DNA of 64,000 nt, taken from a bacterium. Its GTDB lineage: Bacteria > UBA10199 > JACPAL01 > GCA-016699445. Positions 2,636 through 60,112 of the stretch are shown here, one piece after another; the stretch's first letter is position 1; the number at the start of each line of letters is the position of its first letter. The stretch lies in NCBI GenBank assembly GCA_036274695.1, contig DASUFF010000173.1, positions 105 through 64,104 of the forward strand, in the 5' to 3' direction. Below the pieces are notes generated by a model. That model made no database searches. It was not told the DNA's origin and worked only from the letters and a program-made list of their open reading frames with translations. Both the position numbers and the translations under genes were made by a program.

Positions 2636-3007
2636 ATGCGGAAGGTTCTCTACGCCCTGTTCCTCTCTCTCTTCATCTTCGTCATCCTCAACTTCCTCTA
2701 CTGCAATCTGAACGACGCCGCGTTCAATTACCCGATGACCTTCCGGTTCTCCGTGCCGCATGTCTTTGAGATCCGTTCCGTTCCGGTGCAGCTGGGCTTC
2801 GTGGTCATCACGGCCTTTTGCCTCGGCATCGTTTTCCTGGCCCTCCTGCAGGCGATCCCCGCGGTCTTCAAGACCATCGCCGTGCGTTCGCGGGACCGCC
2901 GGATCAAGGAGCTGGAGAAGGAGCTGGAAGAGATGAAGAGCGCCGCTCCCGTTTCGCCGGAGGCTCCGCGCGACGAGACTCATGCAACCACCACCTCTCA
3001 TAGCTGA
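2636..3007 (+). CDS. small inner-membrane protein, LapA/DUF1049-like
   Basis: Two transmembrane segments then a charged coiled tail (KELEKELEEMK). RBS AAGGGGG upstream. Confidence 0.5.
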   Translation: MRKVLYALFLSLFIFVILNFLYCNLNDAAFNYPMTFRFSVPHVFEIRSVPVQLGFVVITAFCLGIVFLALLQAIPAVFKTIAVRSRDRRIKELEKELEEMKSAAPVSPEAPRDETHATTTSHS

Positions 3008-3899
3008 TTTCCACTACGACCATCCGTTCTGCCAGGAGCGCCGCGCGCTCATCGTCCAAAAGATGAAGTCCGGCGGTTATTGGAAACGGGTCATGTCCGC
3101 GGGGCCGGAACTCGACCGCCTGAAGGAATTCCTCTCCCTCGTGGAAAGCCAAAAACATCTCCCCGAGAGCTCGCCTCTCCAGCGGCCCAATTTCCTGCCG
3201 TTGTACCCGGGAGTTTCCTACCGGCCGTTCTACGATCCGAAGGATTTCGACTGGGTGAAGCCCGTCGAAGAGGCTTATCCCGTCATCCTCTCCGAAATGG
3301 AGACCTTGGGGAACGACCCTCTCTACGTCGAATACTCGCCGCCGATCAAAGCCAGCGGCTCGTGGTCGGCCGTGCCTTTTTACTACATGGGCCTTAAGAT
3401 ACCGCTCAGCGCGAGCGTCTGCCCGCGCACCGCCGCTTTTTTGGAAAAACTGCCGGGCAATTGTTTTCTCTATCCGTGGGGCGATGCGCTCTTCTCCCGG
3501 CACATGCCGGGAACGCACCTGAAAGCCCACTGCAGCGTCGACGGATTCCGCCTCCGCTGCCATTTGGGCCTGAAGATCACGGAAGGGGCCGTCATGCGCG
3601 TCGGTTCGGAGACGCGGACGTGGGAGGAGGGGAAGGTCCTGCTGTTCGATGATTCTTTCGAGCACGAGGTGTGGAACCGCGGCACGCAGCCGCGGACCAT
3701 CTTAATCGTCGATTTCTGGCATCCGGAGCTGAATCCGTCCGAAATCCGGGCCATCGAGGCGGGCTTTCGCAAATCCGAGATCCGCGCGTTGATGTACACG
3801 ATCCGCCTTCTTAACGCTTCGGAGGAGACGCACCAGCAAATCCTCCAGGCCTTCGCGATGGAGGACGCCGATCCCGTTATCCGGTCGTTTTGGGACTGA
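2982..3899 (+). CDS. aspartyl/asparaginyl beta-hydroxylase family (2OG-Fe(II) oxygenase, LpxO-like)
   Basis: Family-typical C-terminal region (FDDSFEHEVWN, ILIVDFWHPEL). Alternative start at 3063 (MKSGGYW). Confidence 0.65.
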   Translation: MQPPPLIADFHYDHPFCQERRALIVQKMKSGGYWKRVMSAGPELDRLKEFLSLVESQKHLPESSPLQRPNFLPLYPGVSYRPFYDPKDFDWVKPVEEAYPVILSEMETLGNDPLYVEYSPPIKASGSWSAVPFYYMGLKIPLSASVCPRTAAFLEKLPGNCFLYPWGDALFSRHMPGTHLKAHCSVDGFRLRCHLGLKITEGAVMRVGSETRTWEEGKVLLFDDSFEHEVWNRGTQPRTILIVDFWHPELNPSEIRAIEAGFRKSEIRALMYTIRLLNASEETHQQILQAFAMEDADPVIRSFWD

Positions 3900-5130
3900 G
3901 CCTCGCGATGCTTCGCGTGAAGAAAATGAACTCCATGCAGAAGATGCGCCAGTAATTCTCCCTCTTGGGCAGGTAAAACATCTTCATCCGACAGGCGTCC
4001 GCCAGGTCCTGGCTGTCGACGATGCCGTCGAAAAGGGCGCAAAGGTCGTCCCATTCGACCAAGAGGCCGAACTGGGCGCTGGGACGGTGCGGCCCCGGCT
4101 TCACCGGATTCCACCGTTTGAGGTTGATGTCCCAAAAGACATACTTCCCCTCATAGAAGGAGGAGATCTCGAAATGGGTGGCCAGGAGCGTAAGGACGAT
4201 CTTCGGCGAGAGAGGAAGGGTTTTTAGGAGATGCCGTCGCCGCTGCCGCAGGAAATGTTCCATGACCTTGGTCAATCCCTCCATGTCATATCTCTTCAAA
4301 CGGGGATCCCGAAGCCATCGCTTCCAATCCGGTCCTTCTGATTCGGAATCTCCCGCAACGGCGCGCTTCGGCGCGGGCACGACCCGCGCCCCGTCCTGGA
4401 CCCACCGATCGCCGGGATTCATGGGAAGGGGCGTCATGCGGCCTTCGCCGGCGTTCCGAATGATTTCCAAAAACTCTTCGGGCTTCCCCGGGCAGACCCG
4501 GTCGTTCAACCATTTCAGCTCCTCCGGATACCAGTAGACATTGGATGCCGCAGGCACGACGTAATGAAGGCCCATCTCCACACAGGCCTTGGCCACCTCC
4601 GCGTAGTCGGGCTTCCATTTCTTCTCCGGATCGAGTCCAAAGAGGCCTGAGTAGTCCCAGCCGCAGAAGGGAATGAAGCCGATATCCAGTTGGAACCGCC
4701 GGCCCAGCTCTGCGGCGATGGGCTCGAAGACGCAATCCGCGGCGTCGAACACGCCGCAACCTTCCCCCTCGAAGACGTAGGCCACCTCCTCGGGAATGCC
4801 GACGGAGGGGATCGCCGTGATCTTGAGATCCCGGAAGGTCAGGGACTTCCACGCCTTCAATTCCCTCACGTCTTTGAAGTCCAAGGCCTTCAGCTCCGCC
4901 CGGATGTTCCGGATCGGGCTCCGGGGGATCACGATCGGGACGTCCTTGGGCAGGCGCCTTAAGGTGTCCTCGTGGAAGTGGTCGAAGTGGGCGTGGGTGA
5001 TACAGACGATGTCCGGCGTCGGCAGGTCCTCCAGACGGTGGGCGCGCGGGGGTTCGTGGCGCACGGCGCCGCCGAAGAGCGGATCGGAAAGCCAGGGATC
5101 CGTCAGGCAGCGCGTTTGCGCCGTTTCCAA
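3877..5130 (-). CDS. MBL-fold metallo-hydrolase domain protein
   Basis: HAHFDH metallo-beta-lactamase motif near the N-terminus. 417 aa, last gene of the minus-strand locus. Confidence 0.6.
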   Translation of the reverse strand: METAQTRCLTDPWLSDPLFGGAVRHEPPRAHRLEDLPTPDIVCITHAHFDHFHEDTLRRLPKDVPIVIPRSPIRNIRAELKALDFKDVRELKAWKSLTFRDLKITAIPSVGIPEEVAYVFEGEGCGVFDAADCVFEPIAAELGRRFQLDIGFIPFCGWDYSGLFGLDPEKKWKPDYAEVAKACVEMGLHYVVPAASNVYWYPEELKWLNDRVCPGKPEEFLEIIRNAGEGRMTPLPMNPGDRWVQDGARVVPAPKRAVAGDSESEGPDWKRWLRDPRLKRYDMEGLTKVMEHFLRQRRRHLLKTLPLSPKIVLTLLATHFEISSFYEGKYVFWDINLKRWNPVKPGPHRPSAQFGLLVEWDDLCALFDGIVDSQDLADACRMKMFYLPKRENYWRIFCMEFIFFTRSIARLSPKTTG

Positions 5131-5190: not shown

Positions 5191-5913
5191 TTAGATCTTA
5201 CCAGGGGCGCGGCGCTTTTGCAGGTCTTTCAGCGAAACGGCCGGCTTGTCGGCCGGAGGTTGAATGGGCGTTTCCTTCGCAGGCTGGGATTTCGCGAGGT
5301 CCGCCAAACGGCTGGTGAAGATCTGTTGGGCCGTCTGCCCCGCCTTGAAGCCGCTCTTTTGCAACTGCTCCTGGCTCGCCTTGCGGGAACCCTTTTTCTG
5401 TCTCATGAGGCCGTAAACGGAGACCTCGAGGACGCGCATGGGGGAGGGATACTGATTGATGATCTGCAGGATGAATTCCTTGGCCCCCTTGTCGATGCGG
5501 GCCTTGCCGTTCACCAGCCGGCCCTGGGCCTTCAGATTGTTGACGTAGACCTGGGCATAGCTGGGATCGAGAACGGTGCAGGGAATGATCTTATTGGCGA
5601 TGATTTCGCCGATTTCCTTCTCGCTGTATTCCCGCTCCTCGAGGGACATCGGGTCCCAGGGCGGCCGGATCGGCCCGTTGTAGTGGAACTTCTTCTTCTC
5701 CATCCACTGGGCGTGGGGAACGATGTAGGTGCCGTCGGCCTGCTTGCACGGCTCGAAGGAATCCACCCATTCCTTATACGTGTATTTTTTTGCGTCGACG
5801 AATCCCGAGGCGTAAAGGAAGGCGATGTCAATCTGATCCTTGAAGAAAATATACTTCTTCCGGTCTTTTCCTTCTTTCGCGACCCGGATGAAGATCGCTT
5901 CTAGAGGCTCCAT
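5191..5913 (-). CDS. uncharacterised protein, paralog family P copy 1
   Basis: 240 aa. Shares with 11283-11948, 14824-15468 and 15847-16497 the motifs GFVD, W..F...PDGSY/ADGTY, QW..K..F.Y.GP, YPSP.RV and a low-complexity Lys/Ala/Gln C-tail. Confidence 0.6.
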   Translation of the reverse strand: MEPLEAIFIRVAKEGKDRKKYIFFKDQIDIAFLYASGFVDAKKYTYKEWVDSFEPCKQADGTYIVPHAQWMEKKKFHYNGPIRPPWDPMSLEEREYSEKEIGEIIANKIIPCTVLDPSYAQVYVNNLKAQGRLVNGKARIDKGAKEFILQIINQYPSPMRVLEVSVYGLMRQKKGSRKASQEQLQKSGFKAGQTAQQIFTSRLADLAKSQPAKETPIQPPADKPAVSLKDLQKRRAPGKI

Positions 5914-6026: not shown

Positions 6027-6353
6027 TTACGTCAGGAAATCGGTCGTTTCGACCGTATTGGAATCGCCTTTTTCGATCTCGGCCATCTTCTCTTCGTGGC
6101 GATCCGTTTCGGCCAAGCGGTCGTTCTTGTAATTGAGCCGGGCCTCGTCCTTGCGCTCGTCCAGTCTCTCCAGACCAAGCTCCAAGTTGGCGGCCGTGAT
6201 CTCGGAGCGGTTCATCGAGGATTCCATGATCCCAAAGGTCTGAACGCCCTGGGCGCCCAACGCCGTGATCATATTGTTGCTCGACGTCATTCCCAGCGCG
6301 GCCGTGTAATCGACCGGCGCGGGCATCGAAGCTGATGTTGTGGAACCGCCCAT
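6027..6353 (-). CDS. small uncharacterised protein, paralog family S copy 1
   Basis: 108 aa, N-terminus MGGSTTS..PAPVDY, conserved RHEEKMAEI and C-terminal TDF. 95% identical to the adjacent copy. Confidence 0.6.
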   Translation of the reverse strand: MGGSTTSASMPAPVDYTAALGMTSSNNMITALGAQGVQTFGIMESSMNRSEITAANLELGLERLDERKDEARLNYKNDRLAETDRHEEKMAEIEKGDSNTVETTDFLT

Positions 6354-6366
6354 AACCTTCTCCGTG

Positions 6367-6693
6367 TTACGCTATGAAATCCGTCGTCTCAACCGTGCTC
6401 GAATCGCCCTTTTCGATCGAGGCCATCTTCTCATCGTGGCGATCCATCTCGGCCAAGCGGTCGTTCTTGTAATTGAGCCGGGCCTCGTCCGCGCGCTCGT
6501 CCAGTCTCTCCAGACCAAGCTCCAAGTTGGCGGCCGTGATCTCGGAGCGGTTCATCGAGGATTCCATGATCCCGAAGGTCTGAACGCCCTGGGCGCCCAA
6601 CGCCGTGATCATATTGTTGCTCGACGTCATTCCCAGCGCGGCCGTGTAATCGACCGGCGCGGGCATCGAATTGGATGTGGTTGAACCGCCCAT
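6367..6693 (-). CDS. small uncharacterised protein, paralog family S copy 2
   Basis: Tandem near-identical duplicate of 6027-6353, 13-nt spacer. Confidence 0.6.
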   Translation of the reverse strand: MGGSTTSNSMPAPVDYTAALGMTSSNNMITALGAQGVQTFGIMESSMNRSEITAANLELGLERLDERADEARLNYKNDRLAEMDRHDEKMASIEKGDSSTVETTDFIA

Positions 6694-6720
6694 AAAAACC
6701 TCTTCTCCTCGTCGGACCCG

Positions 6721-7305
6721 TTACGGTCCGTAATAGCCGTTTTCGTACTTGGCCTTATCGGCCTCCGCCTTCGCCTTATCCGCATCCGCTTTTGCCTTAT
6801 CCGCATCCGCTTGCTTCTGGAACGTGTCCTGCCAATTCTGGTGCTGCTGCGAGTCCTTGTTCATCAAGTCGTCCCACTGCTTGCTAAAATCGGGACGGCT
6901 GCCATCCGCATACTCGGTCGCGTTGTTCCAGATCGCTCCGGGAGAATAGCTCCCGGAGCTATTCGCTAAAAAATCGGATACCTCAGTCGTCGTCGTGCCC
7001 TCGCGAGCCGCATCCACGTCGGCTCCGATCTCGGCCATCTTCTCCTCGTGGCGGTTTTCTTCTTCGCTCATCGACTGGATATAGTTCAGCTTGGCGATCT
7101 GCAGCTTCGTATCCAGCGATTCCAGGCCTTGCTCCAGATTGGCCGCGATCTGCATTTCGCGGTCCATACTGGCGGTCATGACGGCGAAGTTCTGGGCCAT
7201 GATCTGGCCCATGGCGATGGTCTTGTTGTTGTCCGACTGATACATCATCGCCTGCGAGTAATCGACCGGAGGCGGGTATGTCGTCGTACTGGTTGATCCA
7301 CCCAT
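6721..7305 (-). CDS. uncharacterised protein, paralog family S copy 3 with repeat-containing C-terminal extension
   Basis: N-terminal ~110 aa homologous to the S family (MGGSTSTTTYPPPVDY, NRHEEKMAEI). C-terminus carries KADADKAKAEADKAK heptad repeats. Confidence 0.6.
   Translation of the reverse strand: MGGSTSTTTYPPPVDYSQAMMYQSDNNKTIAMGQIMAQNFAVMTASMDREMQIAANLEQGLESLDTKLQIAKLNYIQSMSEEENRHEEKMAEIGADVDAAREGTTTTEVSDFLANSSGSYSPGAIWNNATEYADGSRPDFSKQWDDLMNKDSQQHQNWQDTFQKQADADKAKADADKAKAEADKAKYENGYYGP
6752..6814. repeat. 3 x 21-nt in-frame tandem repeat
   Basis: gccttatc(g/c)gc(c/a)tccgc(c/t)tt(c/t/g)(c/t) three times, encoding a DKAKA(D/E)A heptad. Confidence 0.7.
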
Positions 7306-7381
7306 AAAATCTTCGCTCCCCTTAAGCTAAGGTATCGTCAAACCCTTTGTTTCCAGTTGCTTCCAAACACCCGATGCGGCC

Positions 7382-7771
7382 TTAGGGGCCAGGCATCGAG
7401 AAACCGCCGTTGCTCGGGTCGTCGTTTCCGTTGTTCCCGAAAATATCGCCCATCACGTCCCAGCGACTCTCGTTCGAACCGCCGTCGCTGAACAGGATCT
7501 CGGAATCCATGTGTTCGGGAGGCGGGAGGCCTTCTGCGGTCGCTTCGGCGCGGCCGTTCACCGTCTGCTGCCATTCGAGCATATAGGAAAGGGCGTCCTC
7601 CGCTCCCTGGCCGGCCTCGTGCAGGGCCATCTGGGACATCATCGCGCCTTCGTTCTCGGCGCGCGCCTTCTCCATTTCCTGCTGCTGCATCTCCCAAAGC
7701 CGTTCGTAAGCCGCCATGACCTCGGCGTTATTGGCTGCGTTATGGGCATTGACGTCGTTCGTATCGGCCAT
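7382..7771 (-). CDS. hypothetical acidic protein
   Basis: 129-aa ORF on the locus strand. Weak RBS and no recognisable domain. Confidence 0.4.
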   Translation of the reverse strand: MADTNDVNAHNAANNAEVMAAYERLWEMQQQEMEKARAENEGAMMSQMALHEAGQGAEDALSYMLEWQQTVNGRAEATAEGLPPPEHMDSEILFSDGGSNESRWDVMGDIFGNNGNDDPSNGGFSMPGP

Positions 7772-7826
7772 AAGGAAACACTTATCCTTTCACTATTCTA
7801 AACCTATTATCGGACCGCCTCAAAGG

Positions 7827-8498
7827 CTAAGTTGCTAGGCCCCCCTCAACGGGCTTGACGTAGATCCTCTGCAACTTCCTTAGGGAAATCGGCCAAAACT
7901 CCTTCATCCGTTCCCAGCGCTCCTTCAAACCCTTCGGTTTGACGGGGCGCCAGCCCAGGGCCTGCATGCGGGCATCGGGGATCACCAGCGTGGCCGTTCT
8001 CTCCCGAACGCCCCCCATCCGGAGGGTTAAACGGTCGAAACTCTTCTGGAAAATGAAGATGGCTTCCCGGCGCAATTGGGGATCCACATCGGGGATCCGG
8101 ACCTTGGGAAGGATCATCAAGTTCAGCAAATGATTCTCTTTTTTGCCGAAGTGGAACATGGAGTGCCCGCCGGCGATCAGCCGCTTTTCTTCTTTCAGCA
8201 GGCTCGTCCCCAGGAATTCCCGCACCAGGCCGTCGTAAAAGAGCTTGGGCCGCAAAAAAGACTTCCAGTTCAGGTATTTGAACGGATCAAAGAGGGAATG
8301 GTTGAACTCGTAGTGGATCTTGCCCTGGTCATCCATGAAACCCGAGATCTGCATTTCTTCCGTCAGAGGCTGGATGGTCCACGGCATGTAGGTGGTAAAC
8401 AAGTCCTCGTCGCTGACCACATAGGCATCCACCAGGCCCAAATGGGTCCGCTTCACAACCCGAGGAAGCTTCATGTCTTGTTGGAATGCCACTGACAC
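7827..8498 (-). CDS. hypothetical protein
   Basis: 223-aa ORF with consistent GC3 bias. No recognisable family. Confidence 0.5.
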   Translation of the reverse strand: MSVAFQQDMKLPRVVKRTHLGLVDAYVVSDEDLFTTYMPWTIQPLTEEMQISGFMDDQGKIHYEFNHSLFDPFKYLNWKSFLRPKLFYDGLVREFLGTSLLKEEKRLIAGGHSMFHFGKKENHLLNLMILPKVRIPDVDPQLRREAIFIFQKSFDRLTLRMGGVRERTATLVIPDARMQALGWRPVKPKGLKERWERMKEFWPISLRKLQRIYVKPVEGGLAT

Positions 8499-8629
8499 AA
8501 GTGATTATAAAGCAATGCCGGTGCCAAGAGCAGGCCTCGACGGAGCCTTCCAACTATTTGATTTAATTATTATTTTTTGCGAAGAGGTTTGAGGGATCTT
8601 CCTAAAGTGGTGACCTAACCCCCCGAAAT

Positions 8630-9004
8630 CTATGCCGTAGTCCCATTGCGGGCGTTCTGGACTTGCTGACGAGGACCGGAAGGATCGGGGGGATTGTTGG
8701 GTTGTCCCGGCTGCGCTTGAGCGCCGGAAGGGGGGAGGTAACCCATCTGTTCCAAGTACTGCTGAATGGCGGGATCGCCTCCGGTGGCGGCAGGGTCCGA
8801 GGCCATGGCAAAAATGCCTTGGGCCATTTGTTCGCTTTCGGAGTCCACCTGCTGTTGAGCGCGCTGCCGGGCGTCGGCCGAAGCGGCATCCTGGGCCGCC
8901 TTGGAGGCCTTGGCCTTATTGGCTTCCGAAACGCCGATGGTCGTGGCCGTGCACGCGACGGTGACGGCGGCTCCAACGGCTGCTGCTGCTACGGCTCCAG
9001 ACAT
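8630..9004 (-). CDS. small putative secreted or lipoprotein
   Basis: Internal-Met start gives an Ala/Val-rich hydrophobic N-terminus ending VTVAC (lipobox-like), then a Gln/Ala/Pro-rich tail. Confidence 0.4.
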   Translation of the reverse strand: MSGAVAAAAVGAAVTVACTATTIGVSEANKAKASKAAQDAASADARQRAQQQVDSESEQMAQGIFAMASDPAATGGDPAIQQYLEQMGYLPPSGAQAQPGQPNNPPDPSGPRQQVQNARNGTTA

Positions 9005-9106
9005 AATTAAATAAACCTCAAAACTAACAAGAGGATACACACCCCTCTTTAAAGATTTTCGGCCGGAACCCTTCTCCAGTTGCCTTGCCGACTATCCAAA
9101 TAATAA

Positions 9107-10246
9107 TCAAAGGTTAACACTGTTCGAGAGACAGTCCAAGAGCCTATTCAAGTGGCTTTCAGTATGGCGGCTGGTCAGGGAGACTCGAAGGCGGCATTGA
9201 CCTTCTGGAACGATGGGGGGGCGGATTTCTTGGACGTAAAGGTTTGAGTCGATCAAATAAGTCCACTGCCGAAGGATTTCCTCCGAAGAACCCGTCATCA
9301 TCGTGAAGATAGGAGACGGCTCGCGAATCACCATGAGGCGCTTCTGAAGATAGTCGATATTGTTCCAAAGAGACCTGCGCCGCTCCGGTTCCCCGCGAAC
9401 GATTTTGATCCCCTCTAGAGCCGCCGCGGCCGAGGCGGGTGGAAGAGACGTCGAAAACAAAAACGTACGGGCGTAATTGATCAGATAATCCTTCAAAAGC
9501 GAGGAACCACAAACGAACGCGCCGTATGAGCCCAACGCTTTTCCGAAGGTTCCCATCGTGACGACGAAGGAAGGCAGGGGACGCGGAACGAGGCCTTCGC
9601 CCTCATCACCGAAAACGCCGACGGCGTGGCATTCATCCACATACACGGTGGCCCCGTAACGAACCGCGAGGGTGAAGATATCCTTCATCGGGCAAAGATC
9701 GCCACCCGTGTTGAAGACCGCCTCCGTCACGATCAAACGCCGCCCCGGTTCCGAACGGAAACGATCGAGAAGATCCTCCAGCTGATTCATATGGTTGTGC
9801 CGGAAGGGTTGGATGTTCGCCCGAGATAGCCTCACGCCGTCGAGTGAGGAAGGATGGCACCCCTCGTCGATAAAGATGATGTCGGAGGACGAGGCCAGCA
9901 CGGGAATGACCCCCAGATTCGCTTGATAACCCGAATTAAAGAGCAGGGCGGACTCGGCGCCTTTCCATTCCGCCACGGCGTCTTCGAGTTGCTCGTAAAC
10001 CGGAAGGTTGGCGGAAATGATCCGGGATGCGCAGCCGCCGGCCCCGTATTGCCGCATGGCCTTTGCGCCGGCTTCAATGAGGCGGGGATCTCCGGCGAGC
10101 CCCAAATAATTGTTGGTGCAGAAATTGACGACCCGATGCCCTCCCAGGACCATTTCCGGCTCCTGCGGCGTTTCCATGGGGATCAAAGACAAATGATGCC
10201 CTATCTCCTTCAACTCCAGAAGGCTGTCTTCCCAATGGTCTCTCAC
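9107..10246 (-). CDS. alpha-oxoamine synthase (class II aminotransferase, 8-amino-7-oxononanoate synthase / BioF-like)
   Basis: VNFCTNNYLGL, FNSGYQAN and the PLP-lysine block TMGTFGKALGSYGA. GTG start at 10246 overlaps the upstream stop as GTGA. The longer ORF extends to 10468. Confidence 0.75.
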   Translation of the reverse strand: MRDHWEDSLLELKEIGHHLSLIPMETPQEPEMVLGGHRVVNFCTNNYLGLAGDPRLIEAGAKAMRQYGAGGCASRIISANLPVYEQLEDAVAEWKGAESALLFNSGYQANLGVIPVLASSSDIIFIDEGCHPSSLDGVRLSRANIQPFRHNHMNQLEDLLDRFRSEPGRRLIVTEAVFNTGGDLCPMKDIFTLAVRYGATVYVDECHAVGVFGDEGEGLVPRPLPSFVVTMGTFGKALGSYGAFVCGSSLLKDYLINYARTFLFSTSLPPASAAAALEGIKIVRGEPERRRSLWNNIDYLQKRLMVIREPSPIFTMMTGSSEEILRQWTYLIDSNLYVQEIRPPIVPEGQCRLRVSLTSRHTESHLNRLLDCLSNSVNL

Positions 10247-11301
10247 GCGGATTTCCCTCCCAACCGTTCCTTGAGAAAGCGCGCATCTCCTCCGACCTCC
10301 TCCAGCGCGGCAATCAAATCCGATTCGCCGATTTCCACCATGCCGGACCTCTTCGAAAGCGCGCGAAGGTAATCCGGCAAAGACACCCCGGCTTCGCGGC
10401 AGACATTCAGAAAGAAGGAAATAGGGTGGACGTCGATTCCCAGGCTCGCGGGAAAATAATCCTGCCACGAGACCCCGCGCGTCTCCCGCGGGAGAAACTC
10501 CGCAAGGCGCTGGGACGCCATGGCGAGGACCTCCTCGTTCAACCCCGGCTTGAGCCCGAGGCGCACCAAGTGAGCCGCCAAAAGTTCTATCTGGGCGTTA
10601 CCCGCGCCTCGACCGGCACCGCACAGACTTCCGTCGGCCCAACGACATCCTATGCGAATCGCTTCCAACGTCGTGGCCAACGCGGTGCCTAAATGATCGT
10701 GCGCGTGGATGCCCAAGGGAATTGAAACCGCCGCCAGCGCCTCTTCGACGTACGGCCTTACCTCCCACGGACTCCATATTCCCCCCGAGTCCACAAGGTA
10801 GACGACATCCACGCCTTGCGATTGAAGCCATTTTGCCGCCTTCGCCGCCGTTCTCGGAGGGACGCGCGAAGTCCGTATCATTTGAAAAAAAACTTCGTAG
10901 CCCAGTTTCTTTGCGCCAGCGATGAGCTCCTCCGCATCTTCGTACGCATTCGCGTTCGTCCCCACTCGAATGAAATCGAGGTAAGGCCGCAACTCCTCCA
11001 GGTCCTTGGCGCTGGCGAAACGCGGAAGGGCGACCATGCCCAGACGGGCTTGCGTCACAGATTCCCGGGCGGCGCGCGCGTAGACGACATCCCGCTCGCC
11101 GGCCGCAAAGACGCCCTTGTCGCGGGCACCCACGCTCATCCCGTGGCCGACCTCCAAGTAGCTCACGCCGGCCGCGTCGAGCAGATGAGCGACGTCCCGG
11201 AAGAGATCCAACGGATAATTATGATCGAAGAGATAGGCCCCATCCCTCAATGTCACGTCCATCAGAACGGGGGATTCCATGATCACTTCCGTCCTTTCCA
11301 A
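10243..11301 (-). CDS. HMGL-like DRE-TIM aldolase (4-hydroxy-2-oxovalerate aldolase / DmpG-like)
   Basis: VTLRDG, LEVGHG, YLVDSGG, GIHAHDHLGTA and ADGSLCGAGRGAGNA align with the DmpG catalytic core. Start may be the Met at 11280. Confidence 0.75.
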   Translation of the reverse strand: MERTEVIMESPVLMDVTLRDGAYLFDHNYPLDLFRDVAHLLDAAGVSYLEVGHGMSVGARDKGVFAAGERDVVYARAARESVTQARLGMVALPRFASAKDLEELRPYLDFIRVGTNANAYEDAEELIAGAKKLGYEVFFQMIRTSRVPPRTAAKAAKWLQSQGVDVVYLVDSGGIWSPWEVRPYVEEALAAVSIPLGIHAHDHLGTALATTLEAIRIGCRWADGSLCGAGRGAGNAQIELLAAHLVRLGLKPGLNEEVLAMASQRLAEFLPRETRGVSWQDYFPASLGIDVHPISFFLNVCREAGVSLPDYLRALSKRSGMVEIGESDLIAALEEVGGDARFLKERLGGKSA

Positions 11302-11948
11302 AGCAGGTCGCTTAACTTGTCCGCGGTTTGGCGTTCCTTCGAAGGCCCCTGGCTGAATTTTGATTTGTCGGGAACGGTCGGGACGGCCTTCGTCCGTGCG
11401 GCAACCGGAGGAACTGCCGACGACTTTCTCGCCTCCGCCACGGACATCTCGCGGACGCGCCGGGGTGACGGGTAGGTGAGGAGCAACTGCTTCAAGCCGA
11501 ACTTGAACACCCGGTTGACTACGTACTTGCCGTCTTTGATCGCGGTGTCCTTGGTCTTTTCGATTGCCTTGCGAAAATGGTCTTCAGTCAACGTCGTGGC
11601 CGGCAGGATGCCTTCTTTGAGAAGTTTTTCGAAATCCTTCATCTCCCAAAGACCTTCTTGAAGCATCATGGGATCGAGGGGGAAACCTACCGGCCCCTCA
11701 TAGCGAAAGTGCTTCTTGGCCAACCACTGATCCTTGGTGACGCGGTAACTTCCGTCCGGCCGCCGCGAATCTTCGAAGGCGTTGATCCAATCGTCCTTGG
11801 AATGCTTGTCCGTATCGACGAATCCGGTAAGATAGAGATATTCGAGATCATAGCGATCCCGCCATATGATGTAGGAAATTCCGTCCGGAAGAATCGTGGC
11901 CGTCTCGTTCCAGACGGCGACCATGGGGTCGCTTTGACGGCTAACCAT
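11283..11948 (-). CDS. uncharacterised protein, paralog family P copy 2
   Basis: 221 aa with the family motifs (GFVD, PDGSY, QW, YEGP, YPSPRRV, LSDLL). Confidence 0.6.
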   Translation of the reverse strand: MVSRQSDPMVAVWNETATILPDGISYIIWRDRYDLEYLYLTGFVDTDKHSKDDWINAFEDSRRPDGSYRVTKDQWLAKKHFRYEGPVGFPLDPMMLQEGLWEMKDFEKLLKEGILPATTLTEDHFRKAIEKTKDTAIKDGKYVVNRVFKFGLKQLLLTYPSPRRVREMSVAEARKSSAVPPVAARTKAVPTVPDKSKFSQGPSKERQTADKLSDLLWKGRK

Positions 11949-11979
11949 ATTAAAAGATTACACTTTTTGGCGTCTCAGG

Positions 11980-12876
11980 TCAACGCGCGAGCGGGTTCAG
12001 GCGAATAAGAAGGTTTTTGAGATTCTCTTTTTCTGTCTGGAGGCGTTCAAGAACCGCGCCAAGAAATTCCTGATAAGGCCGATTTTCCGACAATTCCCGG
12101 ATCGACAACTCCCTCCCGTCCTGATCACGGACAATCCATTGAGGGTCGCTGACCCGGACGCCTTTTCTTAAGTACACCTGAGAAAGCGGTCCCACCTCCA
12201 ACGTTTCTTTGGATTGCGAAATCCATTCCCAGGCGGCCAAACGTTCCCCGGGCGGAGGGACATAAAAGTCGTCAAAAATGACGGGGGCTTTGGCGGATGC
12301 CCGCGGGTAAAGGTTTTCCAAGCAGGTCCGGGTGCTATCGTAAATGTCACAATCGATGTGAACGAGCGAAAAGGACCTGGAGATTGAAACCTCCGGAAGC
12401 GTTTCCTCAAACCAGCCGGGCATGACTTCCACCTCGTTTTGCAACCCTTCGTCGCGGATGAAGGCGAGACACTTTTCGAAATCACTCGTGAGCATGCCTT
12501 TGCGGTAATAGGAGTCGAAGTTCGGATTCGGCTCAGGCAACCCCTCGAAGCTGTCGCAAAGGAAAACCCTTTTCTTGAGTCCGAAATGACGGATGAAAAA
12601 TCCCAGCAAAAATCCCAGCCCGCCTTGGTGGCTGCCGCATTCGATGAAATCCCCCTCCAGATCCTTCGCCTCAACGGCCAGGTCCCACACTCTCTTGGCC
12701 TTGTAGGCATCAAGATAGGTATGCGCCTTTACTCGGTCCCAATAGCCGTTGAAGACGGGGTCCGCGATGGTGCAGGGGATCTCCGGAATGAAGGAAGGGA
12801 TGGGAACGATGGCGCGATTGGAGATGTAATTGACCTGGCTGAGAACAAAGAGGGGAAAGTCGAACGGTTTCGTCAT
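11980..12876 (-). CDS. TylF/MycF-family SAM-dependent O-methyltransferase
   Basis: ECGSHQGG and CDSFEGLP motifs typical of macrocin-O-methyltransferase-like proteins. Confidence 0.65.
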   Translation of the reverse strand: MTKPFDFPLFVLSQVNYISNRAIVPIPSFIPEIPCTIADPVFNGYWDRVKAHTYLDAYKAKRVWDLAVEAKDLEGDFIECGSHQGGLGFLLGFFIRHFGLKKRVFLCDSFEGLPEPNPNFDSYYRKGMLTSDFEKCLAFIRDEGLQNEVEVMPGWFEETLPEVSISRSFSLVHIDCDIYDSTRTCLENLYPRASAKAPVIFDDFYVPPPGERLAAWEWISQSKETLEVGPLSQVYLRKGVRVSDPQWIVRDQDGRELSIRELSENRPYQEFLGAVLERLQTEKENLKNLLIRLNPLAR

Positions 12877-12885
12877 GAGCTCGTT

Positions 12886-13227
12886 TTAGAGGCTTCTCAT
12901 CATTTGAGCAACCCACGGCGGCGGTCCGGGCTGGCCGGCTTCCGACCGTTCTCTGGGACGCGCCGGAGGACCGCCGGCGGGATCGGTTTGAGAGGGATCC
13001 ATCTCAGCCTTCGCGATGCCGGCATAGAGATCGCCGCTCCCTCGGAGGACGGCCGCATAAATCTGCTGCTTGGCGCCGGGACTCATTCCTTCAGGGGCGG
13101 TCGCCGCAGGCGTAGGTGTCTCTGTAACCGGATCACCCGCAGGAACAGGCGCAGGCGCCGGTGCGGCAGCCGCATCGGCAGCTGGCGGAGGGGGCGGCGG
13201 CGCTGAAGAGACATCTCCGACGGCCAT
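12886..13227 (-). CDS. proline/alanine-rich hypothetical protein
   Basis: 113-aa ORF in frame and on the operon strand. Low complexity, so coding status uncertain. Confidence 0.3.
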   Translation of the reverse strand: MAVGDVSSAPPPPPPAADAAAAPAPAPVPAGDPVTETPTPAATAPEGMSPGAKQQIYAAVLRGSGDLYAGIAKAEMDPSQTDPAGGPPARPRERSEAGQPGPPPWVAQMMRSL

Positions 13228-13265
13228 AGGAATCGTTCCCTAGATATCGATCGCTGATTTAGGAA

Positions 13266-13454
13266 TTACTTTACCGGAGGCGTGCCAGCGCGGAGTTGAT
13301 CGATAACCACGGCGGCCGTCGGATCCGGAGGAGGAGGATTTGCGGGTGCACCAGCAGCCGGCGCCGGTTGAGGCTGATGAGCGTCCGAAGCTAGCTTAGC
13401 TCCAGTCGTTGCCAATTGAGTACCGGCATTAATTAATGCGGGAGCCCATCCCAT
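13266..13454 (-). CDS. small hypothetical protein
   Basis: 62-aa ORF at the head of the minus-strand operon, facing an AT-rich divergent promoter region. Confidence 0.3.
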   Translation of the reverse strand: MGWAPALINAGTQLATTGAKLASDAHQPQPAPAAGAPANPPPPDPTAAVVIDQLRAGTPPVK

Positions 13455-13558
13455 AAATACACCCCTTGATAGTTTATTATCGTATTTTGCGCTCTTTCCG
13501 GTTTCCCCACCAGTTTTTATTTCCTACGTTCGAGAGATCAGGTAATAAAATCAAACAT

Positions 13559-14500
13559 ATGGCCGACCTCGTCTCTCAGATGTTTTCCGGCGATCGACTC
13601 GCACTTTCCCGATTGATTTCAATGGTCGAAGCCCGCTCGGGCGATCTGGTCTCCCTCATGTCCCAGGTCCAGACGCGCTGCGGCAAGGCCTATAAGATCG
13701 GCGTCACCGGCCCTCCGGGGGCCGGCAAGTCGACGTTGACCGACAAACTGATCGCCCACCTCCGCAAACAGGGAAAGACCGTGGGCGTCGTCGCCATCGA
13801 TCCTTCCAGCCCCTTCTCCGGCGGCGCCGTCCTGGGCGACCGCATCCGCATGCAGGACCACGCGGGCGATGAGGGCGTCTTCATCCGCAGCCTGGGAAGC
13901 CGGGGGAGCCTGGGCGGCATCTCGCGCGCCACGCGCGAGGTGGTGAAACTCTTCGATGCCTTCGGCATGGATCATGTGATCGTCGAAACGGTCGGCGTGG
14001 GGCAGACCGAGTTGGACATCATGGAGATCGTCGACACCACCGTCGTCATCCTCACGCCCGAGTCGGGCGACGCCATCCAGACGATGAAGGCCGGCATCTT
14101 GGAGATCGCCGACGTCTTTGTCGTCAACAAGTCCGACCGCGACGGGGCTCCGATGATGCAAGCGGAGCTCAAGGCCATGCTGGAACTGGGCGCGCACGGG
14201 CCCTCCGACTGGATGCCGCCGGCGCTGTTGGTGCAGGCCAACAAGGATCAGGGCGTACGCGAGCTTTTGAACGCCATCGAGGATCACCATGCCTTCCGGA
14301 GGCAAGCGCACCCCGACGCGGGCAAGAAGCGCAAGATCGCCTTGGAAGAAGTGAAGGAAATCGTCCTGGAAGAGACGGCCTTGCGCCTGGCCAAGATACT
14401 GCCGGATGAGGTCAAAGGGGAGATCAGCAATCCCTACGATGTGGCCTCCGGCTACGTAAACCTCATCGAAAAAGCCCTGCGGAAAAAACAAAACGGCTGA
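13559..14500 (+). CDS. meaB: G3E-family GTPase MeaB/ArgK (methylmalonyl-CoA mutase-associated GTPase-like)
   Basis: GPPGAGKST P-loop, the DPSSPFSGGA..GDR switch region and NKSD. Start at the internal Met 13559. Confidence 0.8.
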   Translation: MADLVSQMFSGDRLALSRLISMVEARSGDLVSLMSQVQTRCGKAYKIGVTGPPGAGKSTLTDKLIAHLRKQGKTVGVVAIDPSSPFSGGAVLGDRIRMQDHAGDEGVFIRSLGSRGSLGGISRATREVVKLFDAFGMDHVIVETVGVGQTELDIMEIVDTTVVILTPESGDAIQTMKAGILEIADVFVVNKSDRDGAPMMQAELKAMLELGAHGPSDWMPPALLVQANKDQGVRELLNAIEDHHAFRRQAHPDAGKKRKIALEEVKEIVLEETALRLAKILPDEVKGEISNPYDVASGYVNLIEKALRKKQNG

Positions 14501-14823: not shown

Positions 14824-15468
14824 CTATTTTCCCCCCGAACGGTTCAGCAGATCGGAAAGCCTCTGCGCCGCCACCTGGCTTTGGGCCTGGCCGGTGGAGT
14901 ATCCAGACCCCTTCTGGCCGGACCGCTCGGCACGGGCCTCGGCCAAGCCTAAGGCGCGCACCTGGGCCGGGGAGGGGTACATATCGATCAGCTTCTTCAA
15001 GTCCTCTTTGACCGCCCGCGTTATCTTATACACCCCTCCGGAAAAGAACGACTCCCGGGCCTCGTCGAAGATCGAACGAAATTCCTTTTCGGTAAAATAG
15101 ACGGCGGGGAGGATGTGGAGCCTGATCAAGGTCTCCATCTCCTTTTCCTGCCATTCGCCTTCCTTGATCAGCAGGGCGTCGAACGGGCGTCCCACGGGCC
15201 CGCAATACCGGAACCGCGCCTTGTCCATCCATTGCTCTTCACTCAAGCGGTAACTGCCGTCGGGCTGAAGGGAGTCTTTAAAGGATTCCACCCAATCATG
15301 GACGGTATGCTTCGATTCGTCCACGAAGCCCGTGCAGAAGAGATAAACGAGATCGGTGCGGCTGACGAAGGTGAGATACTTTTTGCCGTCCGGCCCGGCT
15401 TGGGACACGGCGGCCCAGATGGCCTTGACGGCTTTTATCGCTGCATCACTCGGTTGGGATGGTGGCAC
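14824..15468 (-). CDS. uncharacterised protein, paralog family P copy 3
   Basis: 214 aa with family motifs, ending RLSDLLNRSGGK. Confidence 0.6.
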   Translation of the reverse strand: MPPSQPSDAAIKAVKAIWAAVSQAGPDGKKYLTFVSRTDLVYLFCTGFVDESKHTVHDWVESFKDSLQPDGSYRLSEEQWMDKARFRYCGPVGRPFDALLIKEGEWQEKEMETLIRLHILPAVYFTEKEFRSIFDEARESFFSGGVYKITRAVKEDLKKLIDMYPSPAQVRALGLAEARAERSGQKGSGYSTGQAQSQVAAQRLSDLLNRSGGK

Positions 15469-15846: not shown

Positions 15847-16497
15847 TCAGCGATCCCGTTTGGCGATCAACTGGCTCAAACGGTCCGCGACCTGGCGGCT
15901 GGCCGCCGGTCCTTGAGCGAAGCCGGACTGAGGAGAGGACGCGGGGGCGCCTTGTCCCGATTGAGCCGCCTTCAACTGGGCGACGCCCATTTGCAGCACG
16001 CGGCGCGGGGAGGAATAGGTGTTCACGAACGTCGTCCATTCCTGCTTGAGCTGCCGGGAGATGAGGTACTTGCCGTCCTTTTTGGGCAGCGTCTTTTTCA
16101 CCTCGCCGATGATCCGGCCCCATTCGTCCTTGGTGAAATAGACGCAGGGCTTGAGCTTCTCCCACACCAATCCTTCCAGATCCGCCTCGCTCCATTCGCC
16201 CTCGCGGATGGTCATCGGGTCATAGGGAGGAAGGATGGGCCCGGAATAGTGATAGGGGACCTTAGCCATCCACTGCTCTTCGGTCACCAGATAGGCCCCG
16301 TTCGGAAGCAACGAGTCTTGGAAGGCGTCGACCCATTGTTGGATCGTGTAGTGATCATCGTCCACGAAACCGGACCAGAAGTGGTATTCAAGGTCCTTGC
16401 GGTCCTTGATGACGATGTAGTTCCGGCCGTCGGCGCCCGGCTTGGCGATCTTGTCCCACATTTTTTGGAGGATCTGGCGGGATTTTTCCTCAGGCAC
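15847..16497 (-). CDS. uncharacterised protein, paralog family P copy 4
   Basis: 216 aa with family motifs. Confidence 0.6.
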   Translation of the reverse strand: MPEEKSRQILQKMWDKIAKPGADGRNYIVIKDRKDLEYHFWSGFVDDDHYTIQQWVDAFQDSLLPNGAYLVTEEQWMAKVPYHYSGPILPPYDPMTIREGEWSEADLEGLVWEKLKPCVYFTKDEWGRIIGEVKKTLPKKDGKYLISRQLKQEWTTFVNTYSSPRRVLQMGVAQLKAAQSGQGAPASSPQSGFAQGPAASRQVADRLSQLIAKRDR

Positions 16498-16602: not shown

Positions 16603-16677
16603 GGCAGCGTAGCTCAGTTGGTAGAGCAGGCGGTTCATACCCGCCGTGTCGGGGGTTCAAATCCCTCCGCTGCCACC
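16603..16677 (+). tRNA. tRNA-Met (anticodon CAT), elongator-type. tRNA-Ile2 (lysidine) not excluded.
   Basis: Cloverleaf by hand: acceptor GGCAGCG/CGCTGCC, D-arm GCTC-AGTTGGTA-GAGC, anticodon arm GGCGG-TTCATAC-CCGCC, T-arm GGGGG-TTCAAAT-CCCTC, discriminator A. Confidence 0.85.
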
Positions 16678-16798
16678 TTTAGAACTAAGGGGAGATGCCG
16701 CTCTCCCCTTAGCAACCCCATCTGAAAATCGCGGATTGATCGTTCGCTGCGGCCTGGAACGCGGAATGAATCCGCGCTCCAGGTCCTCACTCACTTTT

Positions 16799-18109
16799 AT
16801 GAAGCCGATCGTCGCTATCATTGGTCGTCCTAACGTCGGAAAATCCACATTGTTCAATCGATTGGTGGGTTGGCACCGTGCCATTACGTTGGACGAACCG
16901 GGCGTCACCCGCGATCGCCACTACGGCGATGCGTCCTGGGATGCACGGGAGTTCATCGTCGTCGATACCGGTGGACTCTTTCTGGAGGAGGAAGGAGCGA
17001 TCGAAGGGGAGATCCGCAAGCAGGTGGATCTGGCCATCGGCGAGGCGGACGTCCTGCTCTTCGTGATGGACGCGCGCACGGGCCTCTTGCCGGACGAGAG
17101 GGAAATCGCGCGTTATGTCCGCCAGTCCGGCAAGCGCGTCTTCTTCGTCGCCAATAAAGTCGACGGGCCGAAGAACGAAGAAACGCTCACCGAATTTTTC
17201 GAATTGGGAGAAGAGGTCCTGCCGATCTCCTCCGAGCACGGTTACCGGGTCAACGACCTGTTGGACCGCGTGGTGGCTCCCTGGCCCAAGCTTACCGACG
17301 AGGAGGCGGGGCAAACGCAGCATCCCATCCGCGTCTCCGTCATCGGCCGCCCCAACGTCGGCAAGTCCTCCCTCTTGAACCGTCTGCTGGGCGAGGACCG
17401 CCTGGTCGTCCATAATCAGCCGGGCACCACGCGCGACGCCATCGACACACCCGTCACCGTCCGCAACCGCGACTACCTTCTCATCGACACCGCCGGCATC
17501 CGGCGGCGGGGCACCTGGGAATCGAAGGTGGAACGCTATTCGGTCATAACCTCGCTGAAGGCGATCGAGCGCTCCGACGTCTGCGTGATGGTGCTGGACG
17601 CCACCGAGGGCATTCACAAGCAGGACGCGCACGTCGCCGGTTACGCGGCTCAGGCCGGGAAAGGCGTCATCTTGGTGTGGAACAAATGGGATCTGATCGC
17701 CGAAAAAGACCGAAAGAAGCTGCTGAAGGACTATGAAGACGAACTTCCCTTTTTAGCGCACGCCCCGATCCTTTGCGTTTCCGCGCTGACCGGGGAGGGC
17801 TGCGACCGACTCTGGCCCGAGATCAACCGCATCCATGAGGCCAGCGGCAGGCGCATCCCGACTTCCCAGGTCAACCGCGCCTTCGAAGGCCTGGTCGACA
17901 ACCACAACCCTCCCGTTTACAAGGGCAAGCCGGTCAAGTTTTTCTACGCCACGCAGACCAAGAGTTTTCCGCCGACCTTCGTGGTGTTCGTCAGCGAGCC
18001 GGAGGGCGTGCATTTTTCGTTTCAGCGCTATTTGGTGAACGGATTCCGGAAAGCGTTCGATTTCGGCGGCGCGCCGATCGTCATGCTGTTCCGGCGTAAA
18101 AGAAGGTAG
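16799..18109 (+). CDS. der: ribosome-biogenesis GTPase Der (EngA), tandem G-domains
   Basis: Two GRPNVGKS P-loops, DTGG/DTAG and NKxD motifs. Start at the internal Met 16799. Confidence 0.9.
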   Translation: MKPIVAIIGRPNVGKSTLFNRLVGWHRAITLDEPGVTRDRHYGDASWDAREFIVVDTGGLFLEEEGAIEGEIRKQVDLAIGEADVLLFVMDARTGLLPDEREIARYVRQSGKRVFFVANKVDGPKNEETLTEFFELGEEVLPISSEHGYRVNDLLDRVVAPWPKLTDEEAGQTQHPIRVSVIGRPNVGKSSLLNRLLGEDRLVVHNQPGTTRDAIDTPVTVRNRDYLLIDTAGIRRRGTWESKVERYSVITSLKAIERSDVCVMVLDATEGIHKQDAHVAGYAAQAGKGVILVWNKWDLIAEKDRKKLLKDYEDELPFLAHAPILCVSALTGEGCDRLWPEINRIHEASGRRIPTSQVNRAFEGLVDNHNPPVYKGKPVKFFYATQTKSFPPTFVVFVSEPEGVHFSFQRYLVNGFRKAFDFGGAPIVMLFRRKRR

Positions 18110-49420: not shown

Positions 49421-49774
49421 ATGGGCACGACGATCAACGACCATCGACAGGAGCAACCGATTTCGCCTTTCGATTACATGTCCGACAACAACAAGACCGT
49501 CGCCATGGGCCAGATCCTGGGAATGGAATTCGCCTTGCAGCAGTCGGCTCTCGACCGGGACATGCAACACGCCGCCGCCCTGGAATTGGGTCTCGAAAAG
49601 CTCGACACCAACCTGCAGGTGTCCAAGATGAACGCCATCCAGCAAATGTCCGCGGAAGAGAACCACCACATCGAGAAAATGACCCAGATCAAGCAGAAGC
49701 ATGCCGCCCTGGAGAGCAGCGGGCCCCGCTATGTCGAGATCGCCCCGCCCGAGTTTTTTACGGATTCCTTCTAG
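49421..49774 (+). CDS. small uncharacterised protein, paralog family S copy 4
   Basis: 117 aa. Shares P..DY, DNNKT.AMGQI, ANLE/ALELGLEKLD, NHH.EKM and C-terminal F.TD.F with copies at 6.0-7.3 kb. Confidence 0.55.
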   Translation: MGTTINDHRQEQPISPFDYMSDNNKTVAMGQILGMEFALQQSALDRDMQHAAALELGLEKLDTNLQVSKMNAIQQMSAEENHHIEKMTQIKQKHAALESSGPRYVEIAPPEFFTDSF

Positions 49775-58078: not shown

Positions 58079-58093
58079 AAAGGAAATTCCACC

Positions 58094-60095: not shown

Positions 60096-60112
60096 CGACG
60101 AAGGAGCGATTT

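Follow-up and report, generated by a model that had tools for sequence, protein, structure and literature searches.

What would a bacterium make with an O-methyltransferase, an aldolase-like protein, and an alpha-oxoamine synthase (AOS) whose genes are packed around the gene for an orphan protein? This question is raised by six minus-strand genes at positions 9107 to 13454 of a 64,000-nucleotide stretch of the bacterial contig DASUFF010000173.1, which we call the window. From 5' to 3', these encode two small open reading frames (ORFs), a TylF-type methyltransferase, the second of four copies of an orphan protein family (the P family; this copy is P2), a divergent DmpG-like protein of the HMGL family (here HMGL), and the AOS. 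The three enzymes come from well-known superfamilies; the unusual features are that the AOS and HMGL are offshoots, of BioF and DmpG respectively, and that their neighbor is an orphan protein. Literature searches found no description of this enzyme combination. Around the cassette is a larger island of orphan proteins, which is conserved and specific to the lineage. We put the probability at roughly 50% that it is an accessory cassette for specialized biosynthesis in this island, rather than a split biotin pathway or a remnant of aromatic meta-cleavage. The product is most likely a small molecule, and not biotin.

We began with the arrangement of the genes, which had been described in a first-pass annotation made from the letters of the window. 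The order that it gave was found, with ORFs at the coordinates in Table 1. The genes are also as tightly packed as it had claimed: the spacings along the array, from 5' to 3', are 38, 9, 31, 2, and -4 nt. The last of these is an overlap of the HMGL stop codon and the AOS start codon in GTGA at 10246-10243, which was read directly in the sequence, and a GGAGG is located 9 nt 5' of the AOS GTG. The same overlapping start was used in the JGI gene call for the AOS ortholog in a related locus, L005. The start of HMGL is likely the ATG at 11280, although the open frame reaches a TTG at 11301. The products of both small ORFs are of low complexity, and neither has a family match in Pfam, NCBIfam, or PHROGs. 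They are conserved: the 62-amino-acid product is 50% identical over 42 amino acids to that of the positionally equivalent ORF in L005 (E=8e-10), and the C-terminal half of the 113-amino-acid product is conserved in L005 (50% over 64 amino acids) and in another related locus, L033 (46% over 54 amino acids; both by tblastn). In both loci, the counterpart of the 113-amino-acid ORF is directly 5' of the TylF gene. A weak terminator-like hairpin 3' of AOS may mark where the unit ends at its 3' side; since the region as a whole has no more terminator-like sites than expected from shuffled sequence, this hairpin is only suggestive. The genes form a unit that is conserved and probably co-translated.

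To compare the cassette across relatives, we used tblastn of the window proteins against related loci, together with the gene calls of those loci. Independent assemblies have the genes in the same order, with proteins that are 51-70% identical, so the arrangement is more than chance. The fullest match is L005/L019, where TylF, P2, HMGL, and AOS are 65, 60, 63, and 51% identical to those of the window and where HMGL and AOS overlap by the same 4 nt. This overlap recurs in L011 and L035 (L011/L012 and L035 are short or truncated contigs that show just the HMGL-AOS part). In L033/L034, TylF-P2-HMGL is followed by a convergent B12-binding radical SAM (S-adenosylmethionine) gene. In L002 and L006, P2-HMGL is followed by convergent genes for a carbamoyltransferase and a B12-radical SAM protein; L023 is like L002, and L006 has, in addition, a radical SAM gene and a class-I methyltransferase gene upstream. 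In L010, P2 is accompanied by a radical SAM gene, with HMGL on the opposite strand. Distant contigs, with P proteins of 33-38% identity, have one or more radical SAM genes, then P, and then HMGL, which is followed by a class-I methyltransferase gene in L026 and by a YcaO gene in L025 and L028. Finally, L007, L008, L020/21, and L032 contain P2 without any of the enzymes; L007, L008, and L032 belong to close relatives.

Across these loci, P and HMGL are the constant pair. They are adjacent in 10 distinct loci (the window, L002, L005, L006, L023, L024, L025, L026, L028, and L033), with a gap of 0-180 nt overall and of 2-32 nt when just the closer relatives are counted. TylF and AOS belong to a set of interchangeable accessory enzymes, which also includes the B12-radical SAM proteins, the carbamoyltransferase, class-I methyltransferases, and YcaO. 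We call the enzymes accessory because P2 occurs without them in four of the loci or locus pairs above, and since sister lineages decorate the same core in other ways, the cassette is one chemotype of a mix-and-match family. The suggestion that the P-family protein is an integral member was borne out. The idea of an operon for a single pathway fared less well: order and coupling are conserved in relatives, but accessory enzymes are swapped around P and HMGL, and the four genes are not a fixed pathway. Two other features of the distant loci may be recorded here. Two or three B12-radical-SAM genes precede P in L025 and L028, and their YcaO genes are at 6032-7345 and 7442-8758, respectively. Also, a conserved protein of about 145 amino acids, with an N-terminal transmembrane (TM) helix and an acidic, Tyr-rich C-terminus, is encoded upstream in L026 (7878-8315) and in L028 (3478-3912); these two are 51% identical.

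If the accessory genes are swapped so freely, do they have a common function at all? They could instead be independent genes that gathered at a permissive, recombination-prone spot in the P island. The gene content between P2 and the orphan gene X of the island does differ among relatives, some islands have no enzymes, and the genes do not add up to a chemically complete pathway. However, the start/stop overlap and the gaps of 2-31 nt count against this explanation, as do the pairing of P with HMGL, which is kept down to 33% P identity in distant contigs, and the HMGL-AOS overlap, which is conserved in three lineages. Furthermore, the variable genes are all of the tailoring-enzyme type and not random cargo. 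We consider a chance gathering to be highly improbable.

We then asked whether the AOS is simply the BioF of this organism, which would join alanine to a pimeloyl-thioester while the other biotin genes lie elsewhere. The AOS matches Aminotran_1_2 (PF00155) at 171 bits, and its top NCBIfam model is bioF. Its nearest homologs outside the island (48-51% identity, among 6255) are encoded in bioB<->bioF-bioA-bioD operons. The best match in the PDB is the broad-specificity AOS of Thermus (ThAOS; 7POA/8S1Y, E=3e-73, aligned over residues 6-372), and the AOS shares with BioF and ThAOS its fold, its length, its catalytic set with the lysine that binds pyridoxal phosphate (PLP), and the carboxylate-binding Arg loop. 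By analogy, it presumably works as BioF does, by a PLP-dependent decarboxylative Claisen condensation. The top model, the nearest homologs, and the intact catalytic set would suit a housekeeping biotin gene, and so would the small genomes of the relatives (2.7 Mb for the source of L007 and 2.4 Mb for the main contig of L010), in which operons may be fragmented.

However, the scores argue against BioF. The BioF equivalog model, TIGR00858, has a curated cut-off of 426.45 bits. The AOS of the window scores 370.3 bits, and its orthologs P0263 and P0264 score 356.4 and 360.9 bits, so that all three island proteins are 56-70 bits below the cut-off. Four relatives from the BioF clade, of which two were confirmed to be in bio operons, are all above it (451 bits for P0269, 428 for P0289, 440 for P0272, and 485 for P0307). 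In a neighbor-joining tree of 121 sequences, the island AOSs (those of the window, P0263, and P0264/L005) form one long-branched clade, which is sister to the clade that holds the operon BioFs.

The residues that have changed point the same way. We compared the AOS with 117 other homologs, of which 28 are from the sister clade and 89 are further away. At 101 positions, conservation reaches 90% or more in the sister clade and also in the other homologs; the window AOS is altered at 19 of these. About a dozen positions that are invariant in the 117 others (about 96% conserved for T345 and T350) are replaced across the island clade; the substitutions include S71G, G72C, L76I, G79A, S126I, N130C, A132P, S179N, M180T, T345I, and T350Q, and the same replacements are seen in P0263 and L005. 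As a result, the glycine-rich loop reads GGCASRIISA instead of GSGA(A/S)RLISG. Around S126, N130, and A132, SDxLNHAS has become IDEGCHPS; around S179 and M180, FSM(D/E)GD has become FNTGGD; and around T345 and T350, PPTVPxGTSRLR has become PPIVPEGQCRLR. The PLP lysine (K236), D204, H207, T233, the stacking histidine (H131), and the arginines of the RLR motif are all kept. In ThAOS, the glycine-rich loop carries V79, which helps to set amino-acid specificity, and an Arg chelates the carboxylate of the substrate (PMC11906848). V79 aligns with A73 of the window AOS. We take this pattern to mean that the AOS would still be competent in catalysis, with a change in how it recognizes substrates.

The genomic context of the AOS also differs from that of BioF. 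Its gene overlaps the HMGL gene by 4 nt, and this translational coupling is found in at least three divergent lineages; the AOS is limited to a subset of closely related islands, and close relatives lack it at this locus. No bio genes were found in the window or in the related island loci. In particular, our Pfam scan of the window, which covered the roughly 50 ORFs that we judged to be genes (a few short ORFs were excluded), found mostly ordinary housekeeping genes and several genes without a family match, but no bioA, bioB, or bioD and no acylating aldehyde dehydrogenase. This agrees with the first-pass annotation, which had noted that both the biotin partners and a DmpF-type dehydrogenase were missing. 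The sister position on a long branch, the scores below the cut-off, and the clade-specific replacement of invariant active-site-motif residues set the AOS apart from ordinary BioF. It does not cluster firmly within bona fide BioF, which the annotation had named, together with bioA and bioD elsewhere in the genome, as a sign of a split biotin pathway. On sequence grounds, it appears to be a BioF-derived offshoot and not a canonical BioF. Given the score calibration, the loss of invariant residues in the substrate loop and the PLP-side motifs, and the coupling to HMGL, we set aside a split biotin pathway as the leading explanation and keep it as a very unlikely one.

HMGL raises a similar question, which is whether it is the aldolase of a meta-cleavage pathway. 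It matches PF00682 at 119 bits, and its top NCBIfam models are those for 4-hydroxy-2-oxovalerate aldolase. It falls below the cut-offs of these models (158 bits versus 286 for TIGR03217 and 190.8 versus 229 for PRK08195). In a homolog search, HMGL was 49-64% identical to its P-linked orthologs, and identity then dropped sharply, to 37% or less for everything else. Its closest relatives in the PDB are 8ih7, 4lrs, and 1nvm. Like DmpG, BphI, and MhpE, it has an HMGL-like TIM barrel with the Arg-Asp and His-x-His site for the metal and the 2-oxo acid, which is kept as R12-D13 and H192-A-H194, within a retained HAHDH motif. In DmpG and BphI, the His of the RDGxH motif and a C-terminal Tyr form an acid/base pair, and the C-terminal domain of DmpG contacts the dehydrogenase. 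In HMGL, RDGxH has become RDGAY; every P-linked copy has R[DE]G[AGSN][YF], and the distant ones read REG(S/N)Y. The region of DmpG Tyr291, GY(A/S)GVYSS, is not conserved. The DmpG communication domain (PF07836), which is present in nearly all DmpG matches, was not detected in the window HMGL or its P-linked orthologs.

Thus, the earlier label of a DmpG-like aldolase holds for the barrel and its metal site but not for the catalytic His and Tyr or the communication domain, and these losses account for the missing dehydrogenase. No acylating aldehyde dehydrogenase (DmpF/BphJ) was found in the window or next to any P-linked HMGL; the constant neighbor is the orphan P protein instead. We conclude from these motifs and scores that HMGL represents a distinct subfamily of the HMGL family and not a 4-hydroxy-2-oxovalerate aldolase in the strict sense. 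A meta-cleavage remnant, that is, a DmpG that has lost its DmpF, was ruled out: HMGL lacks the catalytic residues and the communication domain, and it belongs to a separate, P-linked clade. As a side observation, the nearest relatives that are not P-linked (P0148 and P0149, from alphaproteobacterial metagenome-assembled genomes [MAGs]) share an RDGSY motif, and P0149 is encoded in an operon-like array (L016, 8001-12744) with an AMP-binding ligase, a cyclase-family protein, and a DUF4910/DUF2172 protein.

The third enzyme was identified as a TylF-type methyltransferase from its ECGSHQGG and CDSFEGLP motifs, and this was confirmed: it matches PF05711 at 87.1 bits (the cut-off is 23), and the two motifs are at residues 79 and 107. 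Methyltransf_24 was also matched. Its relatives in the PDB are 5i10, 4cdz, NovP (2wk1), and MycF. In an alignment to 5i10, the motifs that bind SAM and metal (ExGxxxGG, DSF(E/Q)G, D-x-D-x-Y-(D/E)-S-T, and DD) are kept, and the catalytic motifs look intact. The orthologs in L005 (65% identity) and L033 (64%) are each encoded directly 5' of P2. Unlike TylF, NovP, and MycF, the window enzyme is extended by about 65 residues at the N-terminus and by about 90 at the C-terminus, and there are no glycosyltransferase or deoxysugar genes near it.

What, then, is P? A profile search found 131 clusters of the family among 1.84 billion representative proteins, and nearly all of the members are 200-260 amino acids long. 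They are from MAGs that are labeled "Deltaproteobacteria bacterium" (including a complete 2.7-Mb genome, CP064976), "Pseudomonadota," or "bacterium," and from metagenome contigs. The four paralogs in the window are 30-40% identical to each other, are ancient, and each have orthologs in relatives. P2 has no match in Pfam, NCBIfam, PHROGs, or a profile search of the PDB. A confident AlphaFold 2 model of P2, from an alignment of 14 sequences, has a mean predicted local distance difference test (pLDDT) score of 81.8. In it, residues 8-178 form a mixed alpha/beta domain, residues 180-202 are a disordered linker, and residues 204-217 make up a C-terminal helix. Foldseek did not find a match for this model in PDB or BFVD (the best E value was about 0.5, with TM scores of at most 0.24). 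Across 104 members, the tail has a conserved S-x-F-x-x-G and then an L-S-x-L-L helix, and P1-type members add a terminal basic segment, SLKDLKK+. The tail looks more like docking or membrane-binding motifs than like the core of a peptide that is synthesized on ribosomes and modified after translation (RiPP). A hypervariable RiPP core was ruled out because the tails are conserved motifs.

We also considered whether the cassette modifies a peptide or protein, in the manner of RiPP pathways or on a scaffold, so that P or the small Pro/Ala-rich products would be the substrate or the scaffold for the enzymes. The relatives make this attractive: their P-HMGL pairs are flanked by one to three genes for B12-binding radical SAM enzymes, by YcaO (in L025 and L028), and by class-I methyltransferases, and the distant loci resemble bottromycin- or proteusin-like RiPP clusters in having two or three B12-radical-SAM genes, YcaO, and methyltransferases in an operon-like array. 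The build of P, in which a disordered linker joins a folded domain to a conserved C-terminal segment, would suit a scaffold; its gene is directly before HMGL in the 10 loci; and conserved small ORFs lie ahead of the enzymes. However, the Pfam scan identified no radical SAM, YcaO, protease, or transporter within the cassette of the window, and no recognizable precursor peptide, RiPP recognition element (RRE), protease, or exporter was identified. To our knowledge, enzymes of the HMGL and alpha-oxoamine synthase families do not act on peptides, and we know of no RiPP pathway that includes an HMGL-family enzyme. The tails of P are short motifs that are common to the paralogs and not hypervariable cores, and P1, P3, and P4, as well as P2 in L007, L008, and L032, have no enzymes nearby. 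A peptide- or protein-modifying cassette is unlikely, although it is the most probable of the alternatives.

If the cassette is instead for the biosynthesis of a small molecule, how might it work? From the gene identities, conservation, coupling, divergence patterns, and modularity, we infer substrates, an order of steps, a product, and a role for P, as follows. The core would be P2 with HMGL, a putative DmpG-derived, metal-dependent TIM barrel. HMGL might perform stand-alone aldol- or Claisen-type carbon-carbon chemistry on a 2-oxo acid, without the channeling of an aldehyde, and P might be its dedicated non-catalytic (or novel) partner or a carrier for the substrate. The AOS could then condense an amino acid with an acyl-thioester, other than alanine and the pimeloyl-thioester, by a decarboxylative Claisen reaction to give an alpha-amino-ketone, and the TylF-type enzyme would O-methylate a hydroxyl or enol of the product. 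The amino-ketone-derived metabolite or lipid head group proposed by the first-pass annotation is a putative product, and the radical SAM and YcaO neighbors in relatives would also suit a peptide or protein substrate.

Several observations weigh against this proposal. The cassette does not contain a CoA ligase, an acyl carrier protein, a transaminase, or a reductase that could link the product of the aldolase to the substrate of the AOS, so a linear three-step pathway cannot be written from the cassette genes alone. Promoters and terminators were called weakly. All four P paralogs have conserved C-terminal linear motifs, which fits a structural or adaptor protein better than a subunit of an enzyme, and three of them adjoin no enzyme. 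Lastly, the B12-radical-SAM and YcaO partners in the relatives are hallmark peptide- and protein-modifying enzymes, which sits uneasily with a small molecule as the sole type of product. A bolder idea is that P is a new type of scaffold or carrier, or that it takes the place of DmpF as an obligatory non-catalytic subunit, and that P and HMGL define an unrecognized class of biosynthetic systems, in which they would be the core and interchangeable tailoring enzymes (the BioF-derived AOS, the TylF-type methyltransferase, B12-radical SAM enzymes, YcaO, and the carbamoyltransferase) would make the product; this is quite doubtful. The conserved C-terminal tail of P could itself carry the growing product, with the aldolase and AOS chemistry taking place on a protein-borne substrate.

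For biosynthesis of an amino-ketone, the nearest functional precedent for the pairing of an aldolase with an AOS is in the ketomemicin clusters of actinomycetes. There, an aldolase and a PLP-dependent C-acyltransferase lead to an amino-ketone-type product, and the ktm cluster also encodes a dehydratase, an ATP-grasp ligase, an amidinotransferase, and a dehydrogenase (PMC11943689). The likeness is one of enzyme type. The cassette has two of the six ktm enzyme types, and the other four are absent from it, according to Pfam; conversely, ktm lacks both a P-like protein and a TylF-type methyltransferase.

If our proposal is correct, then BioF was recruited out of biotin synthesis, with its substrate loop rebuilt and its catalytic residues kept, and a DmpG-type aldolase was freed from its dehydrogenase and paired instead with an orphan protein that has no fold match among the solved structures of the PDB or the predicted viral ones of BFVD. 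There is demand for alpha-oxoamine synthases and pyruvate aldolases as biocatalysts for forming carbon-carbon bonds, which gives these offshoots some practical interest. More broadly, the mix-and-match architecture around P and HMGL suggests that uncultured deltaproteobacteria-like bacteria, whose source habitats are soil, groundwater, and wastewater, have a family of metabolites or of protein modifications, and it offers a way into the function of the P family.

The features of the cassette and of the surrounding island are listed in Table 1.

Table 1. Features of the cassette and its island, in the order of the minus-strand array and then outward (positions in the window)
Feature	Positions	Strand	Description
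Small ORF	13266-13454	-	62 aa, first gene of the array; hydrophobic N-terminus, then Pro-rich tail
Small Pro/Ala-rich ORF	12886-13227	-	113 aa; 9 nt upstream of methyltransferase gene
TylF/NovP/MycF-type SAM- and metal-dependent O-methyltransferase	11980-12876	-	298 aa; PF05711
P-family copy 2 (P2)	11283-11948	-	221 aa; orphan protein
HMGL (divergent DmpG-like HMGL-family TIM-barrel protein)	10243-11280	-	345 aa; PF00682
AOS (apparently BioF-derived PLP-dependent alpha-oxoamine synthase)	9107-10246	-	379 aa; GTG start; PF00155
Weak terminator-like hairpin with T-rich tail	9029-9049	-	Consensus scan; 58 nt past AOS stop
Small TM protein	8630-9004	-	Island gene
Orphan X	7827-8498	-	223 aa; no family match
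129-aa orphan	7382-7771	-	Island gene
MGGS-family small proteins	6721-7305, 6367-6693, 6027-6353	-	Sequences start MGGST
P-family copy 1 (P1)	5191-5913	-	Island gene
MBL-fold protein	3877-5130	-	Conserved island backbone
MeaB/ArgK-type G3E GTPase	13559-14500	+	PF03308, 304 bits; divergent from cassette
P-family copies 3 and 4 (P3, P4)	14824-15468, 15847-16497	-	Each with its own promoter-like site

The backbone that the island shares with its relatives runs from engA through P4, P3, meaB (on the opposite strand), and small ORFs to P2 (in the window, the tRNA-Met lies between engA and P4). After P2, it continues with the small TM protein, orphan X, the small MGGS proteins, P1, the MBL (metallo-beta-lactamase)-fold protein, HIT, thrC, and hom. 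Synteny of this downstream part was seen with L002, L005, L007, L008, L010, L011, L023, and L032. Apart from the MBL-fold protein, the downstream island proteins have no family match in Pfam or PHROGs. We ruled out a prophage or another mobile element because there were no PHROG matches and because synteny with housekeeping flanks (hom, thrC, and HIT on one side and engA and guaB on the other) is kept in relatives.

Upstream of the cassette, the gene for the MeaB-type GTPase likely starts with the ATG at 13559 (the open frame begins at 13466). It adjoins the P2 unit in all of the relatives examined, and orthologs with 54-77% identity are at the same position in L002, L005-L010, L023, L026, L032, and L033. 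There is no gene for a B12-dependent mutase among the window proteins. One possibility is that the GTPase serves the B12-binding radical-SAM enzymes that are common near it in relatives, and not a mutase. Weak promoter-like sites were called for P1 (5985-5957), P3 (15551-15523), and P4 (16532-16504). The only match to Rfam or from ARAGORN in the window is one tRNA-Met at 16603-16677 on the plus strand. It overlaps the 5' end of the longest EngA/Der ORF (16646-18109, plus strand), so the real start of engA must be downstream of 16677.

On the other side of the cassette, orphan X is present as a single copy in the window and as four tandem paralogs in L002 (16372-19587); a structure model from its single sequence was poor (pLDDT of 39). 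The tandem pair of MGGS proteins is 93% identical, and identical hairpin sequences are found 340 bp apart, at 6110 and 6450. Aside from a weak match to a PHROG of unknown function, this family has no family match. A fourth, distant MGGST copy (49421-49774, plus strand) adjoins the gene for a XerC/D-type recombinase (49801-50724). At the edge of the island, the gene for an oxygenase of the Asp/Asn beta-hydroxylase family (LpxO/OlsC-like; 2982-3899, plus strand) converges with the MBL gene, and their 3' ends overlap by 23 bp.

Farther away, a gene at 53084-57265 on the minus strand encodes a fusion protein of 1393 amino acids, with a Ser/Thr protein kinase, AAA_16, GAF, and a sigma-54 activator AAA+ domain. 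Beside it are five ORFs that have no Pfam match (57410-62682), at least two of which have Cys-containing N-termini, and these are followed by a second sigma-54 activator gene at 62679-63977.

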